A model generated the notes under the pieces. The model worked only from the letters and a program-made list of their open reading frames with translations, was not told the origin of the DNA and searched no databases. This document shows positions 839 to 11,434 of a DNA stretch of 64,000 nt, piece after piece. This DNA comes from Acinetobacter phage vB_AbaM_ME3, in sequence record KU935715.1; one strand, given 5' to 3'. The stretch's first letter is position 1; each line of letters begins with the position of its first letter. Made by a program: the position numbers and the translations under genes.

Positions 839-1492
839 ATGATGGATCTTAAAGATAGAGCAGAAGTGTTTAAAAAAGCATTGCTCTTGAAACATCCACA
901 CATAACATTCAATGTTTCTGATTATCTTACAAAAGCAGACTTTATAAATTTTAATTGCTCTAGGCATGGACCATTTGTTTCGTCTCCTAGAAATATAATT
1001 AGAAATAAATACGGTTGTGATAATTGTTATAAAGATTTAGTACAATTAGCTCCTAAAGATGTAGTAACTCCAAGAAAAACTACTGAGGAATTCATAGAAG
1101 AGGCTACTCGATTACATAATGGGTTCTATACTTATGAACATACAGTATATGAAACAAGGCTAAAGCCTATTACAGTGACTTGTCCTCTTCATGGTGAATT
1201 CATTATTCCTCAAGCCGCAATGCATCTAGTAACGAAGAGAGGTTGTTTAGATTGCAGAAGAGAAAAGTCTATGTTAACGAGAGATCAATTTATAGATAAA
1301 TGTAAGCTTAGAACTAAATCTTTCTACATATATGATAAGACAATTTATGACGGGTTAAATAAAGACATTACAGTAGAGTGTATTCGTCATGGTGAATTTA
1401 CATTAAAGGCAAGCAGTCATATTAATGGTAAAGGGTGTCAAGAATGTAGAGCTTTAGGTATGGATTTATATAAAGGAAGAGAAAACAGATGA
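839..1492 (+). CDS. hypothetical protein with three tandem Cys/His zinc-ribbon-like modules (C-x2-HG-x-F ... GC-x2-C)
   Basis: AAGGAGG RBS 8 nt upstream. Three ~70-aa internal repeats: NCSRHGPF...GCDNC, TCPLHGEF...GCLDC, ECIRHGEF...GCQEC. Confidence 0.7.
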   Translation: MMDLKDRAEVFKKALLLKHPHITFNVSDYLTKADFINFNCSRHGPFVSSPRNIIRNKYGCDNCYKDLVQLAPKDVVTPRKTTEEFIEEATRLHNGFYTYEHTVYETRLKPITVTCPLHGEFIIPQAAMHLVTKRGCLDCRREKSMLTRDQFIDKCKLRTKSFYIYDKTIYDGLNKDITVECIRHGEFTLKASSHINGKGCQECRALGMDLYKGRENR

Positions 1493-3626: not shown

Positions 3627-4085
3627 TTGATTTACAGTAATTCAGCTTTAAATCTAATAATGAAATCAAGACCATTACATTTACAGAAAAATAAATTATG
3701 GAATGGAAGAGATACAATAGGATACTGCCATATCATTAGAGTAGGTGATAAACTAAGAGATACTGACAAGATTTCTAAAAAAGAAGCTAAAGCATTATTA
3801 GAAAAATCTCTTGTGAGGATATCCAAACAGTTAAATAAAGAACTTGAAACCGATATAAATCAAAATCAATTTGATGCTCTTGTAAGTTTAGTATATGATG
3901 TTGGAATTAGAACTGTCATTGCATCAGGAATGATAGATCAGCTCAATAAAGGCAAAATACTAGAAGTTAGTGTTATGTTTAGAAAGTGGTCTCGTTATAA
4001 GAAGAGACCTGTATACCAATTAATTAAAGCTAGACAAATGGAAATGAAGTTATTTGATACTCCAATAGGAAATAAACATGGATAG
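3627..4085 (+). CDS. GH24 (T4/P22-type) lysozyme-like protein, apparently lacking the canonical catalytic Glu/Asp
   Basis: INQNQFDALVSLVYDVG and DTIGYCH closely resemble the P22/T4 lysozyme core (NQNQYDALCSLIFNIG, TIGVGH). TTG start at 3627 with an AAAGGAG RBS; alternative ATG at 3660. Confidence 0.6.
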   Translation: MIYSNSALNLIMKSRPLHLQKNKLWNGRDTIGYCHIIRVGDKLRDTDKISKKEAKALLEKSLVRISKQLNKELETDINQNQFDALVSLVYDVGIRTVIASGMIDQLNKGKILEVSVMFRKWSRYKKRPVYQLIKARQMEMKLFDTPIGNKHG

Positions 4086-5373
4086 TAAAGTACAACAAAT
4101 GCAAGAGATGATGAAGTTGCAAGAAACTATTGCTCTAGCAAGAAAAGCTTCTCAAGGAAAAACAATTGAGATAGAAGAAGTTAAAGAAGATAAGGAAACC
4201 GTTATTAACACACTTCCTACTGAATATATTTCTGCAAATCAATTAAAACTTTCCTCAAAAGAACTTACGCATTCTACATCTTACTTGGACAGACTTAGAC
4301 AAGATGATGACAGGTTAAATGAAATTAAGATATCAGAAGAAAAAGCTGTTAAGATTAGGAGAGGTCTTCTTAAATTAACTACAGGTAATGCTTCAGTTGT
4401 TCCTTTAAAATGTAATGGAGATACTTGTGCATTTAAACAAACATGTTTAACAGGCGATACTTTAATACTTTCTAGAGGTGGCATTTTTAGAAGACTAGAT
4501 ACTTTAACTGCTCGTAATAAAGTTTACTCATTTAATCTAGATACTTGTAAGATTGAACTAGATAAAGTAATTGAATTTAAGAGACAAGGGTCTGCTGATG
4601 TATATCTTATTGAAACATCTTTAGGTAATACTATTAAAGCTACAGTTAATCATCCATTCTTATCATTATTTAATGATAATTTAGAATGGAGTTCTATAGA
4701 TGGTACAGTTGGAAGTGAATTAAAAGTTGGGTCTGAGGTTCTTGTAGCTGATTTCGAATTAGATACTAAAGATGTGTATTCGATGGGAGACTCATTTATT
4801 GATACAATCAAAGCCATAACTCTTATAGGTACAGAAGAAGTTTTTGATATTGAAGTAGCAGCAAACCATAATTTTATTGCTAATAACTTTATTGTTCATA
4901 ATTGTCCATATTGGTTAGAAAAAGTAGCCCCTGTTGGATTAGCTTGTCCAGTAGAAACTCAATTAATTGAATACTGGCTAGAGAAGTATCAACAAGAGTT
5001 TAATGTTGAAGACAATAGTATTACAGATATGCATATGATTGCTAGACTATGTGAATATGATATCTACGATATGAGAGTAACTCGATACTTAGCTGAAAAT
5101 GATCAAACATTACTTACAGATTTTATCTCATCTTATACAGAAGATGGTGAGCCTATTAGTAATAAAGCTACATCTGCTGCTTTTGAAGTTAAAGAACGTA
5201 TTGATAGATTAAGATCTAAGACTCTTAAAGAGTTAATGGCTACAAGAGAAGCTAAAGCTAAGATTGCAGCTACAGTTGTTAATAGTGCATCTAATTCAGT
5301 ATCTATTGCAGAGATGAAGAAAAAATATGACGAGCTTATTAAAGAAAGAGCTACAATGAGAACGGTTAATTAA
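4078..5373 (+). CDS. intein-containing protein; extein carries a C-x4-C-x5-C-x13-C motif spanning the splice junction (function unknown, possibly a DNA-binding/packaging protein)
   Basis: 431 aa. The extein KCNGDTCAFKQT | CPYWLEK..GLACP is interrupted by a 153-aa Hint domain. Confidence 0.75.
   Translation: MDSKVQQMQEMMKLQETIALARKASQGKTIEIEEVKEDKETVINTLPTEYISANQLKLSSKELTHSTSYLDRLRQDDDRLNEIKISEEKAVKIRRGLLKLTTGNASVVPLKCNGDTCAFKQTCLTGDTLILSRGGIFRRLDTLTARNKVYSFNLDTCKIELDKVIEFKRQGSADVYLIETSLGNTIKATVNHPFLSLFNDNLEWSSIDGTVGSELKVGSEVLVADFELDTKDVYSMGDSFIDTIKAITLIGTEEVFDIEVAANHNFIANNFIVHNCPYWLEKVAPVGLACPVETQLIEYWLEKYQQEFNVEDNSITDMHMIARLCEYDIYDMRVTRYLAENDQTLLTDFISSYTEDGEPISNKATSAAFEVKERIDRLRSKTLKELMATREAKAKIAATVVNSASNSVSIAEMKKKYDELIKERATMRTVN
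4444..4902 (+). mobile_element. mini-intein (153 aa, no homing-endonuclease domain)
   Basis: Block A CLTGDTLIL, block B TVNH (TxxH), block F/G EVFDIEVAANHNFIANNFIVHN followed by +1 Cys. Confidence 0.8.
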
Positions 5374-5458: not shown

Positions 5459-5911
5459 ATGTCTATTTCAATTCAAAGAACTCATCACGGTAAAACCAAA
5501 TATATTAATGGTACTTTCTATAGTAAGAAAAATGGAACTAACTTCCCTTATAAATCTTCATATGAACTAGCATATCTTCAGAAATTAGAAGAAGATCCTA
5601 CTGTAGTTAGATACATGTATGAACCATTTGAATTAGGTTATGTAGATATGTATAACAAGAACAGAAAATACATACCTGACTTCATGGTACTATATTCAGA
5701 TAGTTCTGTTCTTATTACTGAAATCAAACCTGAAGCTATGTTAAAAGATTATGATGTTCAAGCTAAGGCTAAAGCAGCTAAAGCTTTTATTAAAGATAAT
5801 TACCCAGATATTAACATTGCTTATAAATTTATAACAGAGAAAGATTTATTCAAGAACATAACAGAGTACACAAACTTTGTTAGGAGTGTTAAGAATGGAG
5901 AGAAGTCGTAA
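5459..5911 (+). CDS. PD-(D/E)xK nuclease, T7 endonuclease I / TnsA-N-like (putative junction-resolving enzyme)
   Basis: YMYEPFEL...YIPDFMVLYSDSSVLITEIKPE fits E...PD...ExK and parallels T7 gp3 (FEYEEW...YTPDFLLPNGIFVETKG). 150 aa. Confidence 0.5.
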   Translation: MSISIQRTHHGKTKYINGTFYSKKNGTNFPYKSSYELAYLQKLEEDPTVVRYMYEPFELGYVDMYNKNRKYIPDFMVLYSDSSVLITEIKPEAMLKDYDVQAKAKAAKAFIKDNYPDINIAYKFITEKDLFKNITEYTNFVRSVKNGEKS

Positions 5912-7494: not shown

Positions 7495-9135
7495 ATGATT
7501 GATAATCAAGGTCCTATTAAAAGAGACAGAGTTCAGAAGTATGGTAGGAAATCTGGATTACAAGAAGCTAAGAGTTTTGCAGAACGAAATGGAATGAAAA
7601 CCCTTCCCCTTCTTACCAATAAACATAAGAATAAACTCTATCGTAAGAACATAGAAAGAAATGCTAAGTCGAGTAGTCGAGTAATACCTCCTGAGGAGAG
7701 AAAGTTTAAACTTAGTACTATTACAGGTATAGGGAATCAAACAAGTAGTGTAGCAACACCTTTTCTCCCTTCTTCTAGAATTATGAATCCTCCACAACCT
7801 GCTAAATCTAAATATACAAGTTTCTTAGGAGACATGTACAATAAACTCTTAAGTAGTTTTGATAAATCTACAGATCAAGCTATCGGAGGTGCTTTAGGAT
7901 TTACTAACAGAAATGTAGTTCCTGGATTCACTCAAAACACTTCTTCAGGATTAAGTAGATTTGATGTAGGTAATGGAGACCCTTTCAAATACTCAAACAG
8001 GTTTATGAAAGGAGATTTAGATGATCTAAGAGCAGCTTATATTAATGAAGCTGCTAAAGGTGTTAGAGTAAGGGGAGATAATGTAAATCCATTTGATAAC
8101 TCTAGAGGAGCTAGAAATTTAGGTAGGCTTAGACAACTTCAGAATAGAATTAATGGAGGAGGACAAGCTGACTTAATACGAGAATCTAATTCAATTCGAT
8201 CTCAATTAGATGATGTTAAAGGTAGACAAAAGTCTATATTCCCTCCAAGAAATATAGGGCAAGGTCAGAGTAATTATGAAAGCTTAGTTAGACAACAAGA
8301 ATCTTTAGAAGCTAGGCAAGTAGTAGTAAATAGAAAGCTAGAAAGAAATGCTAGGATACTATCTACTGCAAATGAATACTCAGGGGCTACACACATCAAA
8401 GGTTTTTTACCAAAAGAGGGTGTAGGTGGTTATGGCTTAGGAGTAAGCAATTACTTAGCTGCTTCTAGAAAAGAATTGTTTGTACGTGGATTAGGGTTTA
8501 CAGGGGGTATTCTAGGACCTAGCGGTGCAGAAGCTCTAATGAACTCTTTTGGTATTGTAACTGCTAAACAAAGAGCTGTAACTCAATCAAAGGGTCTGCT
8601 AGGAAAAATGTTCTCAGCTGGATTTCAAGCACCTCTTATGACTTATGGTTCTTTGTTATTTACAGCTTCTTCAGGTGGAGACTTATCAGATTTTGTTGAA
8701 ACTCAATTAACATATGCTGGTGGACTTCAAGGATGGAGAATAGGATCTAGTGTAGGAGGTATGCTTACTAAAGGAACTGGGGCTAACCTATCTCAAATTA
8801 AAGGTGGTAATATGATATCAGCTATGAGAGCACAAGGAGGAAGAGCAGTTCTAAGAGGGGCAGCTGGTGTTGTAGGTGGAGTAACAGGTTTTGCATTAGG
8901 TGCAGGACTCGTTGCAGGAGCTTCATGGCTTGCTCAAGATATATCTTCAAATAGGTCAACAATAAGAAAGATAGCTAAAGATTTTACAACTAAAACAGCT
9001 ACAATGAATACTCAAAACACTAGACAATCTTTAACAATGCGACAGATGGCTATAAGTAAACTAGCTAAATCTGGTTTAAATGATAGAGCTACTCTTCTCG
9101 GAAATGAATCTAGAGTACTTAAAGGATTAATGTAA
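7495..9135 (+). CDS. hypothetical basic, Gly/Arg/Ser/Asn-rich protein (546 aa); possibly a head-internal/ejection or assembly protein
   Basis: Long ORF immediately upstream of the terminase. Lys/Arg-rich N-terminus, Gly-rich C-terminal half with GxxxG runs, few hydrophobic residues. Confidence 0.6.
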   Translation: MIDNQGPIKRDRVQKYGRKSGLQEAKSFAERNGMKTLPLLTNKHKNKLYRKNIERNAKSSSRVIPPEERKFKLSTITGIGNQTSSVATPFLPSSRIMNPPQPAKSKYTSFLGDMYNKLLSSFDKSTDQAIGGALGFTNRNVVPGFTQNTSSGLSRFDVGNGDPFKYSNRFMKGDLDDLRAAYINEAAKGVRVRGDNVNPFDNSRGARNLGRLRQLQNRINGGGQADLIRESNSIRSQLDDVKGRQKSIFPPRNIGQGQSNYESLVRQQESLEARQVVVNRKLERNARILSTANEYSGATHIKGFLPKEGVGGYGLGVSNYLAASRKELFVRGLGFTGGILGPSGAEALMNSFGIVTAKQRAVTQSKGLLGKMFSAGFQAPLMTYGSLLFTASSGGDLSDFVETQLTYAGGLQGWRIGSSVGGMLTKGTGANLSQIKGGNMISAMRAQGGRAVLRGAAGVVGGVTGFALGAGLVAGASWLAQDISSNRSTIRKIAKDFTTKTATMNTQNTRQSLTMRQMAISKLAKSGLNDRATLLGNESRVLKGLM

Positions 9136-9151
9136 TAATTAAAGGGATATT

Positions 9152-11434
9152 ATGAAGAAAATCGAAACTCATACATTAGATGACTATGATGATGAAATGA
9201 ATGAGAAGGATAAACAACTCTTAAAACTTTCTGAGATTCCTTGGAGAGATTATCTTTCTGATAAGAATTATAGTAACGATATTAATACTATGTGTGAAGA
9301 GTGTATTGCTAATCAAATTAAAGAACATGGTTCTCAAGTTATTCCTTGTCAAGGATTAGCAGACGCTAAATCTATGTTAGGAGATGATTTATATACAAAG
9401 ATTACAGAAGGACAAACTAAAGAAGAAGTTGAGCTTCTAAATGCTATGTATGATCCATACGCTTACATGGATACATACCTTGATCTCCCTAACAAAGGTA
9501 AGACATCTAGGCGATTCAAACCGCGCTGGTATCAAGAAAGAATTATACGCTGTTCTGCAAGATCTAAGGTTGTGAGAATGGGTCGTCGCTGTATTCCTGG
9601 GTATGAAAAAGTACTAATGTCTGATAATACTTATAAACGTATAGATGAAATTAGTATTGGGGATAAAGTATTATCTTGGAATAACAATCAACTAGTAGAA
9701 AGACAAGTAACTAATCATTGGGATAATGGTATTAAAGAAGTGTTTAGAATTTCTTTAAGTAATGGAAAGAAAATTGATTGTACCTCTAACCATCCATTAT
9801 TAACTTATAAAAATGGTAAGCAAATTTGGTTATCCTTGGAAAATGGTCTAGATGTAGGAAGCTTAGTAACAATTCTAGAAGGATCTTCTTTTGAATTTAC
9901 ATCAATTCACTCTATTCGTTCTTTAGGAAAGATGCAGACTTTTGATATATCTATCAAAGAAGATCATAACTTCATTGTAAATGATATTGTGTGCCATAAC
10001 ACTGGTAAGACAATGGCACTAGCAATTCTTATTCTTCATCGTTTAATAACAAAAGAAAAATATCGTGTACTTCTTGTATCACCTTATCAAGTACAAACAG
10101 AGGAAGTTGTAGATAATATTAAGAATTTGTGTAGACTGCTACCAGATAACCCTCTTGTAAGTTCTAAAGCTTCACCTAACCACGTACTAACATTTAATAC
10201 AGGTTCAGTCCTTAAAGGATTTACAGCTGCAACATCAGCAGACTCTGTACGTGGACAGCCAGCTGACTTACTAGTAGTCGATGAGATTGATGACGTTAGT
10301 GAAAAAGCGATGATTTCTATTATGGGTATTAAAATGGATAACCCTGATGTGGAAGTCTGGAGATCAGGTACTCCTAAAGGAGAAGTAAACTTACATAAAG
10401 CTGAACAAGAGATAACTTCTAAATGTTTCCATTATCCTTCTTTTGTAATTCCACACTATAGTGATGCTATGGATAAGGAGTTAAGAGCAGATTTAGGTGA
10501 AATTGGTTTTATTCAAGAAGTAATTGCAGATTTTGGTAGCACTTCTAATGGTGTTTTCCAACCTATGTTTATTTCTAGAGCTCAGCAAAGAGCAGAGTTT
10601 ATCTCTCCTGAAGATGTATTAAGAGATAGAAGTAGATTTATAGTAACTATAGGTGTTGATTGGAACCATGATCAAGTCGGAACAAGAATTGTAGTAATTG
10701 CATATGATAAGCTAAATCCTCAATTTAGAATCATTGAGAAAGCAGCTATATCTCTAGTAGGGTATACACAACAAGCTGCTATGGAAAAGATCATTCATCT
10801 TAATAGGAAATATAATTGTGACCATATATTCTGTGATGAAGGCTTCGGTGCTACTCAAATAGGAGATTTAAAACGAGTTGGTGAATCATCTATAGGAAAA
10901 GTTCCTAAAGGCCATCCAGACTTAAAATTGTTAGATGTACAATCTGTAAACTTCTCATCCAATACAGAATTTAGAGATCCTATCTCAGGTGAGATGTATA
11001 AGACACCTACAAAACAATTTGCTGTTCAAAACACTGTGTTAATGTTAGAACGAGATATGTTATCTTTGCACCCTAAAGAAGATAATGATATCATTCTGCA
11101 AATGAAAAACTATATTGAAAAGTCAAGGACCCAAAATAGAATAGTATATTCATATCTAAGTAAAAAGATTGGAGACCATGATCTAGATGCATTTATGATT
11201 GGATTATATGGCTATAGAAAAATCTATTCATCATTATTTGAAGGTTCCGTATTTCAAGCAATGATTAAGTTTGCAAACAAATCAGACCCAGGTAGTACTG
11301 AAAATAACTCTCCAGAAGTAATTCCAGAAGATATTTTGATGCACTCTCCTGTAAGATTCGGAAAAACATTAAAACAATTTAACCCAAGATTAAATAAGAT
11401 TGGAATCGGGGGTAAGTCAAGAAGGAGAATCTAA
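9152..11434 (+). CDS. terL: terminase large subunit (ATPase plus nuclease) interrupted by a mini-intein in the Walker A box
   Basis: Q-motif RWYQERIIR; split P-loop MGRR | TGKT; Walker B LLVVDEIDDV. Size and position next to head genes. Confidence 0.9.
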   Translation: MKKIETHTLDDYDDEMNEKDKQLLKLSEIPWRDYLSDKNYSNDINTMCEECIANQIKEHGSQVIPCQGLADAKSMLGDDLYTKITEGQTKEEVELLNAMYDPYAYMDTYLDLPNKGKTSRRFKPRWYQERIIRCSARSKVVRMGRRCIPGYEKVLMSDNTYKRIDEISIGDKVLSWNNNQLVERQVTNHWDNGIKEVFRISLSNGKKIDCTSNHPLLTYKNGKQIWLSLENGLDVGSLVTILEGSSFEFTSIHSIRSLGKMQTFDISIKEDHNFIVNDIVCHNTGKTMALAILILHRLITKEKYRVLLVSPYQVQTEEVVDNIKNLCRLLPDNPLVSSKASPNHVLTFNTGSVLKGFTAATSADSVRGQPADLLVVDEIDDVSEKAMISIMGIKMDNPDVEVWRSGTPKGEVNLHKAEQEITSKCFHYPSFVIPHYSDAMDKELRADLGEIGFIQEVIADFGSTSNGVFQPMFISRAQQRAEFISPEDVLRDRSRFIVTIGVDWNHDQVGTRIVVIAYDKLNPQFRIIEKAAISLVGYTQQAAMEKIIHLNRKYNCDHIFCDEGFGATQIGDLKRVGESSIGKVPKGHPDLKLLDVQSVNFSSNTEFRDPISGEMYKTPTKQFAVQNTVLMLERDMLSLHPKEDNDIILQMKNYIEKSRTQNRIVYSYLSKKIGDHDLDAFMIGLYGYRKIYSSLFEGSVFQAMIKFANKSDPGSTENNSPEVIPEDILMHSPVRFGKTLKQFNPRLNKIGIGGKSRRRI
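9590..10000 (+). mobile_element. mini-intein (137 aa) inserted in the terminase P-loop
   Basis: CIPGYEKVLM (block A), TSNH (block B TxxH), TFDISIKEDHNFIVNDIVCHN then +1 Thr. Removal restores GRRTGKT. Confidence 0.85.

Follow-up and report, generated by a model that had tools for sequence, protein, structure and literature searches.

A putative class 1 mini-intein in the Walker A motif of the large terminase of Acinetobacter phage vB_AbaM_ME3

We analyzed a 64,000-nucleotide stretch of the genome of Acinetobacter phage vB_AbaM_ME3 (KU935715.1; hereafter the window, with positions counted from its first letter), focusing on the gene for the large terminase subunit (TerL). The terL gene (ME3_13) occupies positions 9152..11434 of the plus strand, stop codon included, and encodes a 760-amino-acid precursor that contains an in-frame insert of 411 nucleotides, or 137 amino acids, at 9590..10000 (+). 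Family profiles, matches to proteins of known structure, a structural model, invariant residues, and the pattern of substitutions make it highly probable (about 0.9) that this insert is a cis-splicing class 1 mini-intein, splicing itself being what we infer from these data. An earlier note on the same DNA had proposed a Hint-domain mini-intein between these two positions, and its boundaries proved exact: the Cys1 codon tgt (block A) lies at 9590-9592 and the Asn137 codon aac at 9998-10000.

A mini-intein within the Walker A motif of TerL

The insert separates an N-extein (aa 1-146; 9152..9589, +) from a C-extein (aa 284-760; 10001..11431, +), and the precursor reads ...RWYQERIIRCSARSKVVRMGRR / CIPGYEKVLM...CTSNH...DHNFIVNDIVCHN / TGKTMALAIL... 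(here and below, a slash within a sequence marks a junction or insertion point). The Walker A motif is split between its second Arg (R146) and the Thr preceding GKT, leaving G144-R145-R146 (9581-9589, +) at the end of the N-extein and TGKT (10001-10012, +) at the beginning of the C-extein, where the +1 Thr (T284, codon act, 10001-10003, +) comes first. The catalytic set of class 1 inteins is complete in ME3, comprising Cys1, the T65-x-x-H68 motif of block B (T65-S-N-H68, 9782-9793, +, in the context DCTSNHPLL), the terminal H136-N137 (9995-10000, +), and the +1 Thr. Blocks F and G are found in TFDISIKEDHNFIVNDIVCHN (9938-10000, +), the end of the intein, after which the C-extein starts with TGKTMALAILIL. 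An alignment of 16 homologous inteins has C1, T65, H68, P69, and N137 as its only invariant residues.

Profile searches with the 137-residue segment detected the Pfam families Intein_splicing (PF14890; E = 5e-17, 62.6 bits against a gathering cutoff of 35.8) and Hint (1.9e-7), as well as the NCBIfam models TIGR01445 intein_Nterm (9.5e-9) and TIGR01443 intein_Cterm (4e-4). A sequence search of PDB with the ME3 intein returned 40 intein chains at E<0.01, of which the 137-aa Spl DnaX mini-intein was the best (3.9e-10, residues 7-137) and the NpuDnaB intein the next. The AlphaFold2 (AF2) model of the intein, built on 16 homologous inteins, forms a single all-beta domain with a mean predicted local distance difference test score (pLDDT) of 97.7. 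Its top Foldseek matches in PDB were all HINT domains of inteins, with TM values of 0.86-0.90 and E values of about 1e-10; by intein, the values were TM 0.90 for NpuDnaB, 0.88-0.90 for SspDnaB, and 0.83-0.87 for Mtu RecA. The model aligns end to end with mini-inteins of 137-142 aa, and all of its residues lie within the HINT fold. Since Pfam, NCBIfam, and PHROG scans found no endonuclease family on the segment and its length leaves no room for one, the designation as a mini-intein with blocks A, B, F, and G, as originally proposed, is correct.

Class 3 inteins make no use of a nucleophile at position 1 and have a WCT motif, with a block F Cys serving as the nucleophile. This class was ruled out for the ME3 intein, in which Cys1 is present and invariant and the residue that we take to be block F position 4 is Asp119 (TFDIS) and not Cys. 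As a rule, autoprocessing domains of the bacterial intein-like (BIL) and Hedgehog types act without ligating exteins, have no C-terminal Asn paired with a +1 nucleophile, and are not inserted at conserved sites of housekeeping proteins. Such a domain was likewise ruled out by the conserved HN/T junction and by the insertion within Walker A, for which exact empty-site alleles exist; BIL2 and Hedgehog domains are relatives in fold only (Foldseek, TM 0.84-0.90). The G+C content of the intein is 29.0%, that of the terL exteins 34.1%, and that of the window 32.4%. The genome announcement gives 40% for the whole ME3 genome (PMC5000817).

Assignment of the host protein to the large terminases

The identity of the host as a large terminase, also part of the earlier note, was corroborated by several searches. 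The precursor and the in silico spliced TerL both match PHROG family phrog_2 'terminase large subunit' (1.8e-25). The match spans residues 265-693, and no nuclease-domain Pfam model was matched; a presumed C-terminal nuclease domain of the RNase H-like type would fall within the C-extein (10001..11431, +). In tblastn searches, alignments to the annotated TerLs of Moorella phage MTATph1 (2e-51) and Bacillus phage 0305phi8-36 (3e-36) cover spliced residues 89-551. T4 gp17 is among the PDB matches of ME3 TerL (3ezk, 2o0h, 3cpe), and the alignment with gp17 pairs the adenine-binding-type motif RWYQ of the N-extein (9524-9535, +) with RDYQ, the rejoined GRRTGKT with the Walker A motif SRQLGKT (GRR facing SRQ), and LLVVDE of the C-extein (10268-10285, +) with the Walker B motif MIYIDE. 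The spliced TerL thus shows both signatures of a large-terminase ATPase, a deviant Walker A of the form [G/S]-R-x-x-G-K-[T/S] and a Walker B of the form hhhhDE.

The match to Terminase_6N improved from 6.3e-5 for the precursor to 1.3e-6 (28.6 bits, cutoff 22) for the 623-aa spliced TerL, in which it begins upstream of the junction and crosses it, and the intein models match the insert; the C-extein matches Terminase_6N and DEAD models. The precursor is identical to YP_009595845.1, annotated as 'large terminase subunit' of Acinetobacter phage vB_AbaM_ME3 (234.9 kb). A megablast search of terL against a phage collection gave no match, which has no bearing on novelty because the collection apparently does not contain the ME3 record. 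No second terL was found within the window. The protein that carries the 137-aa insert is assigned as a T4 gp17-like large terminase.

Empty-site alleles and distribution among relatives

A search with the spliced TerL yielded 147 relatives, and the related inteins described below were drawn from these TerL matches. A word-indexed homology search with the intein alone gave no match, reflecting the limit of the tool for so short a query. The insert is missing from TerLs P0002-P0018 (617-625 aa, 74-76% identical), which read QSKVVRMGRRTGKTMALA, that is, VVRMGRR/TGKTMALA. At the DNA level, the syntenic loci L001 (on a 243-kb contig) and L002 are also empty and read GGTCGACGT / ACGGGTAAG, encoding GRR/TGK. 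The corresponding ME3 sequence is GGTCGTCGC, followed by the 411 nt and then ACTGGTAAG, a clean 411-nt in-frame difference from L001 and L002. Empty sites in related phages, which the earlier note had recommended looking for, were thus found in 76%-identical syntenic relatives that are contiguous at the exact junction. The motif GRRTGKT that excision was said to rebuild is the literal sequence of the intein-free P0002-P0018 and of L001 and L002. One peptide predicted to span the junction of the spliced TerL is VVRMGRRTGKTM.

The insertion point is occupied by this same intein in two further loci, L003 and L004, whose nucleotide identity to the window is 86.5% along 18 kb. Across the terminase clade, the intein at this site (site A1 below) is present in 24 cluster representatives, about a fifth of the clade. 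All 24 inteins are 135-145 aa long, begin with Cys, end with Asn, and are followed by TGK[TS], the +1 residue being Thr in every case; none contains an endonuclease. Their mutual identity falls to 23-24%, and the penultimate His is replaced by Ser in P0031 and P0041. Under a rough site classification, 46 of the 106 full-length TerL representatives have no intein at all. Occupied alleles are scattered among empty ones in a neighbor-joining tree of the TerL C-terminal domain.

Selection on the intein and its history

Between ME3 and L003, the intein has a ratio of nonsynonymous to synonymous substitution rates (dN/dS) of 0.084 at a dS of about 1.25, which argues for purifying selection and for its maintenance as a functional protein domain. 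The exteins are held more tightly, with dN/dS of 0.02-0.04 in the same comparison. Intein identity tracks extein identity across 153 pairs that are not phylogenetically independent (Spearman 0.85). On the simplest reading of these patterns, the TerL mini-intein, which has no endonuclease, appears to have resided in this terminase lineage for a long time, passing down with terL and being sporadically lost or exchanged by recombination.

Synonymous divergence between 9152..11431 of the window and 8001..10280 of L003 is 1.57 in the N-extein, 1.25 in the intein, and 0.65 in the C-extein, that is, about twofold higher before the C-extein. This contrast along terL could be a mosaic boundary or plain rate variation. 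The most variable stretch in this comparison covers precursor residues ~201-275, which correspond to intein residues ~55-130. A co-conversion tract or recombination boundary at the intein was considered, and no such claim is made here, as the sliding window against L003 shows only a mild gradient (78-86% versus 87-93% identity).

Intein insertion hotspot in the TerL family

The earlier note had called the gene a hotspot for mobile elements, and the family bears this out: a stretch of about 190 residues in ME3-like TerLs contains at least five points at which inteins are inserted. Site A0 (R133/C134) is occupied by mini forms of 134-185 aa and by forms of 376-391 aa, several of which are flagged as PF14528 LAGLIDADG. 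Site A1 (R146/T147), the site of the ME3 intein, holds only the endonuclease-free inteins of 135-145 aa described above. At site A2, the classic point GK/T, the inteins are about 243-338 aa long and start with Ala. Site B follows the Walker B Glu (DE/C...HN/CDD) and contains inteins of 125-135 aa and 422 aa, and site C, near spliced residue 321, contains one of 442 aa. The description of the ME3 position as a classic P-loop site therefore holds for insertion in the P-loop as such and not for the exact point, R/TGKT being three residues upstream of GK/[TS].

The ME3 gene is vacant at site A0, where the codons for R133 and C134 lie at 9548..9553 (+) with the junction between 9550 and 9551, as established by comparison with the metagenomic TerL P0190. 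This 1138-aa protein belongs to the 90%-identity cluster of ME3 and has an identical N-extein, a 378-aa intein at A0, and the A1 mini-intein, reading ...RWYQERIIR / CLHEDTDVLMADG...NNIIVHN / CSARSKVVRMGRR / CIPGYEKV... Since P0190 is occupied there next to an identical N-extein, the point between 9550 and 9551 in ME3 is a currently vacant homing site. Judged from its size and from its A0 relatives rather than from a scan of P0190 itself, the P0190 intein presumably holds an endonuclease. Site A0 occurs in occupied and empty form among nearly identical TerLs, and this polymorphism indicates active homing at A0.

Inteins of the P0190 type (also in P0016, P0022, and P0023) reside in the same gene and lineage as the ME3 intein, with their insertion point 13 codons upstream of it, which makes the two inteins of P0190 near neighbors. 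The splicing domain of the P0190 A0 intein is the closest relative of the ME3 intein that we found outside A1, its N-terminal part being 35% identical and its C-terminal part 50%. The A0 inteins of this type carry an insertion in the same gene at a point of their own. They differ from the ME3 intein in taking the host Cys134 as the +1 residue, whereas the ME3 intein takes Thr, and in that the relatives in P0016, P0022, and P0023 are flagged as PF14528 LAGLIDADG, whereas the ME3 intein has no endonuclease. Hitch-hiking of the mini-intein on A0 homing was considered as well: A0 and A1 inteins co-occur in several lineages, mostly of one clade, which provides no independent support for it.

The A2 inteins of P0066, P0080, P0082-84, P0105, P0107, P0108, and P0111 have the upstream junction GK/ALD[VI]NTPIPTP.GW, with GRRAGK as the host sequence, and thus no nucleophile at position 1. 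This suggests that the gene family also harbors inteins of class 2 or class 3. At site B, the inteins (e.g., P0030, P0040, and P0064) show LDE/C...THN/CDD and enter immediately behind the catalytic Glu of Walker B. The ME3 equivalent of site B, between 10285 and 10286, reads LLVVDE/IDD, with Ile in place of the +1 Cys.

A second mini-intein in a candidate small terminase gene, and neighboring genes

A hidden Markov model of the site-A1 inteins detected a second class 1 mini-intein of 153 aa in the window, at 4444..4902 (+; E = 3.3e-20; Pfam Intein_splicing 3.1e-17). Its host is a 431-aa open reading frame at 4078..5373 (+; YP_009595841.1). The junctions are canonical (...CAFKQT/CLTGDTL...TVNH...FIVHN/CPYWLE...), and the intein interrupts a conserved C-x4-C-x5-C-x13-C cluster, in which it separates the second Cys from the third. 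With the spliced 278-aa host as query, 66 homologues of 52-99% identity were recovered; the second intein is present in all 62 complete ones, and no intein-free allele was seen within this clade, in contrast to the sporadic occurrence of the TerL intein.

The NCBI label of this host, 'RNA (guanine-N1-)-methyltransferase', rests on a marginal match to the Pfam family Methyltrn_RNA_4. We rejected this identity, as the match is probably spurious; no other significant Pfam or PHROG match was obtained for the protein. Its AF2 model (pLDDT 74) had no fold match in PDB and many weak matches in BFVD (E 1e-3 to 1e-1), nearly all of them named 'terminase small subunit'; three intein-free proteins of 233-239 aa from uncultured phages matched at 1e-9 to 1e-11. 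The model comparisons make 4078..5373 a candidate for the small terminase subunit. If this is what it encodes, both subunits of the packaging enzyme need splicing. A literature search, though not an exhaustive one, turned up no description of a small-terminase intein.

Between the two intein-containing genes lies 5459..5911 (+), encoding a 150-aa protein with a TnsA-like endonuclease N-terminal domain (Pfam 5e-14) and a match to PHROG 'head closure' (1.3e-20). Head-completion nucleases of the gp4 type have been noted for some jumbo phages (PMC7824862), and the domain content assigns the product of 5459..5911 to this type. Directly upstream of terL, 7495..9135 (+) encodes a protein without family match and with a Gly-rich C-terminal half, which is 546 aa long in ME3, 548 aa in L003, and 931 aa in L001 and L002 (5204..7999 in L001). 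At the left edge of the module, 839..1492 (+) encodes a Cys-rich protein of 217 aa (DUF723, 1.1e-10) that is conserved in L003.

Predicted splicing pathway and alternative explanations

Following established intein chemistry, the 760-aa precursor, in which the 137-aa HINT domain splits Walker A into GRR and TGKT, would undergo an N-S acyl shift of Cys1 at the Arg146-Cys1 bond, helped by Thr65 and His68 of block B. The hydroxyl of the +1 Thr would then attack the thioester to give a branched ester, cyclization of Asn137, helped by His136, would release the intein, and an O-N shift would create the Arg-Thr peptide bond. The expected product is a TerL of 623 aa with the contiguous P-loop GRRTGKT, and it alone would bind ATP and join the pentameric packaging motor. 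That the precursor would be unable to bind ATP or assemble, and that packaging would depend on splicing, is a sound inference from the structure of P-loop NTPases and the pentamer mapping of Kelley et al. (2016; PMC5050341). Since ME3 forms plaques and has been propagated (PMC5000817), and since the window has no second terL, this gene must yield a working terminase.

Several points weigh against splicing or against the history proposed above. Thr at +1 is less nucleophilic than Cys or Ser would be, and splicing could accordingly be slow or conditional. The patchy distribution of the intein on the tree fits many losses and recombinational transfer alike. The nearest intein-free allele found is only 76% identical, and no recent gain or loss has been caught at site A1. 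The correlation between intein and extein identity was obtained with pairs that share parts of their phylogeny.

The persistence of an endonuclease-free intein could also mean that selection retains it as a conditional switch responding to redox state, temperature, or time after infection, with the candidate small-terminase intein under the same control. The catalytic residues have stayed intact across inteins diverged to about 24% identity, the low dN/dS of the intein can be counted in the same direction, and additional cysteines are seen close to the active site, at intein positions 63 and 135, in ME3 and its closest relative. The second intein, apparently fixed in that all complete homologues found have it, breaks up a conserved cluster of four Cys. 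Yet many relatives, near and remote, have an intact P-loop and no intein (the 46 representatives above), which shows that terL can do without it. Purifying selection, moreover, would act on any intein of an essential gene, as a non-splicing mutant would be lethal. We therefore regard a switch as unsupported and improbable. The same small chance applies to its fullest form, in which both subunits of ME3-type terminases splice and the two mini-inteins have been co-opted as a timer or redox checkpoint that holds the motor inactive until late infection.

It is still harder to see the HINT domain as a non-splicing one that only cleaves, giving a two-piece terminase, or that is retained as a tolerated insertion. 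In favor of this reading, the fold search returned BIL2 and Hedgehog domains with TM values similar to those of inteins. Against this very improbable outcome, the full set of splicing residues is invariant, including the terminal Asn and the +1 hydroxyl nucleophile, both of which are unneeded for N-terminal cleavage alone, and the flanks rebuild exactly the motif of intein-free homologues. From what is established on P-loop NTPase structure, ATP binding would not be expected of a P-loop that is cut, or that has 137 extra residues separating its beta-strand from the GKT turn (mapping in PMC5050341). An artefact is hardly credible, whether a chimeric assembly or an intron at the nucleic-acid level misread as coding sequence, and nothing was found in its favor. 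Independent contigs from several sequencing runs encode the same 760-aa TerL or 90%-identical ones, as does the genome of the cultured ME3, the reading frame is open through the insert, and conservation is strong at the protein level. Rfam revealed no group I or group II intron in the window; an RNA element at the insertion site was rejected, as Rfam and tRNA scans of the window were both empty. A cis-splicing mini-intein accordingly remains the preferred interpretation of 9590..10000.

Significance and comparison with known inteins

The ME3 genome announcement (PMC5000817), its GenBank annotation, and a comparison of Acinetobacter phages (PMC5795418) name no intein. The terL intein of ME3 is previously unannotated; terminase P-loop inteins as such are well documented, and the position within the loop is non-classic. 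The GenBank/RefSeq record belongs to a therapeutically discussed Acinetobacter jumbo phage, and its label 'large terminase subunit' should name the intein and the mature product, as should the mislabel 'RNA (guanine-N1-)-methyltransferase' of the neighboring intein gene. Unspliced sequences will distort the terminase phylogenies made from them. The ME3-like clade forms a natural allele series with empty, mini-intein, endonuclease-containing, and doubly or triply occupied genes, which is good material for studying how inteins persist without an endonuclease. If it splices efficiently, a compact 137-aa intein that accepts Arg (-1) and Thr (+1) as its flanks could become a protein-engineering tool. 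The general understanding of inteins and terminases is unchanged by the ME3 finding.

The Npu and Ssp DnaB and Spl DnaX mini-inteins (4o1r, 1mi8, 7cfv) share with the ME3 intein the HINT fold, the size, the class 1 blocks, and a P-loop NTPase as host. They are its best structural and sequence matches, yet they are only 24-29% identical, reside in other hosts, and have Cys or Ser rather than Thr at +1. Among cultured phages, classic GK/[TS] P-loop inteins occur in the TerLs of Bacillus phage vB_BceM_WH1 (gp116), Corynebacterium phage Zion (gp12), and Oceanotoga phage vB_OteS-UFV02. The TerL of WH1 is distantly homologous to that of ME3 (29% identity) and has an intein of about 410 aa that is long enough for an endonuclease domain, whereas the TerLs of Zion and the Oceanotoga phage contain mini-inteins sized like that of ME3. 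The junction in all three is GK/C...HN/[TS], compared with GRR/C...HN/TGKT in ME3, and their inteins are at most about 30% identical to the ME3 intein. Within the collection searched, the inteins of cultured phages reach no more than about 31% identity to that of ME3.

A close parallel is provided by mycobacteriophages, in which TerL is the commonest intein host, with seven sites in the ATPase domain, two of them in the P-loop and one in Walker B (Kelley et al., 2016, mBio; PMC5050341). Five terminase inteins spliced efficiently in a reporter in that study, including the P-loop intein TerL1-b, and endonuclease activity was found for two; the authors place the classic P-loop position between the Lys and the Thr or Ser of GK/[TS], and they likewise argue that splicing is needed for the active site and the pentamer (PMC5050341). 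Like TerL1-a and TerL1-b, the ME3 intein is inserted in the Walker A P-loop of the ATPase domain of a phage TerL, and the ME3-like family resembles the mycobacteriophage TerLs in being a multi-site hotspot (seven sites there and at least five here) that includes a Walker B site. The hosts differ, since those in mycobacteriophages are Terminase_1 proteins of actinobacteriophages, the sole Terminase_6 site there being at the C-motif, whereas ME3 TerL is a Terminase_6, gp17-like protein of a Gram-negative jumbo phage. TerL1-b and TerL1-c carry an active homing endonuclease, in contrast to all 24 site-A1 alleles, and the TerL1-a and TerL1-b sites are at or adjoining GK/T, whereas the ME3 intein enters the P-loop three residues upstream, at R/TGKT.

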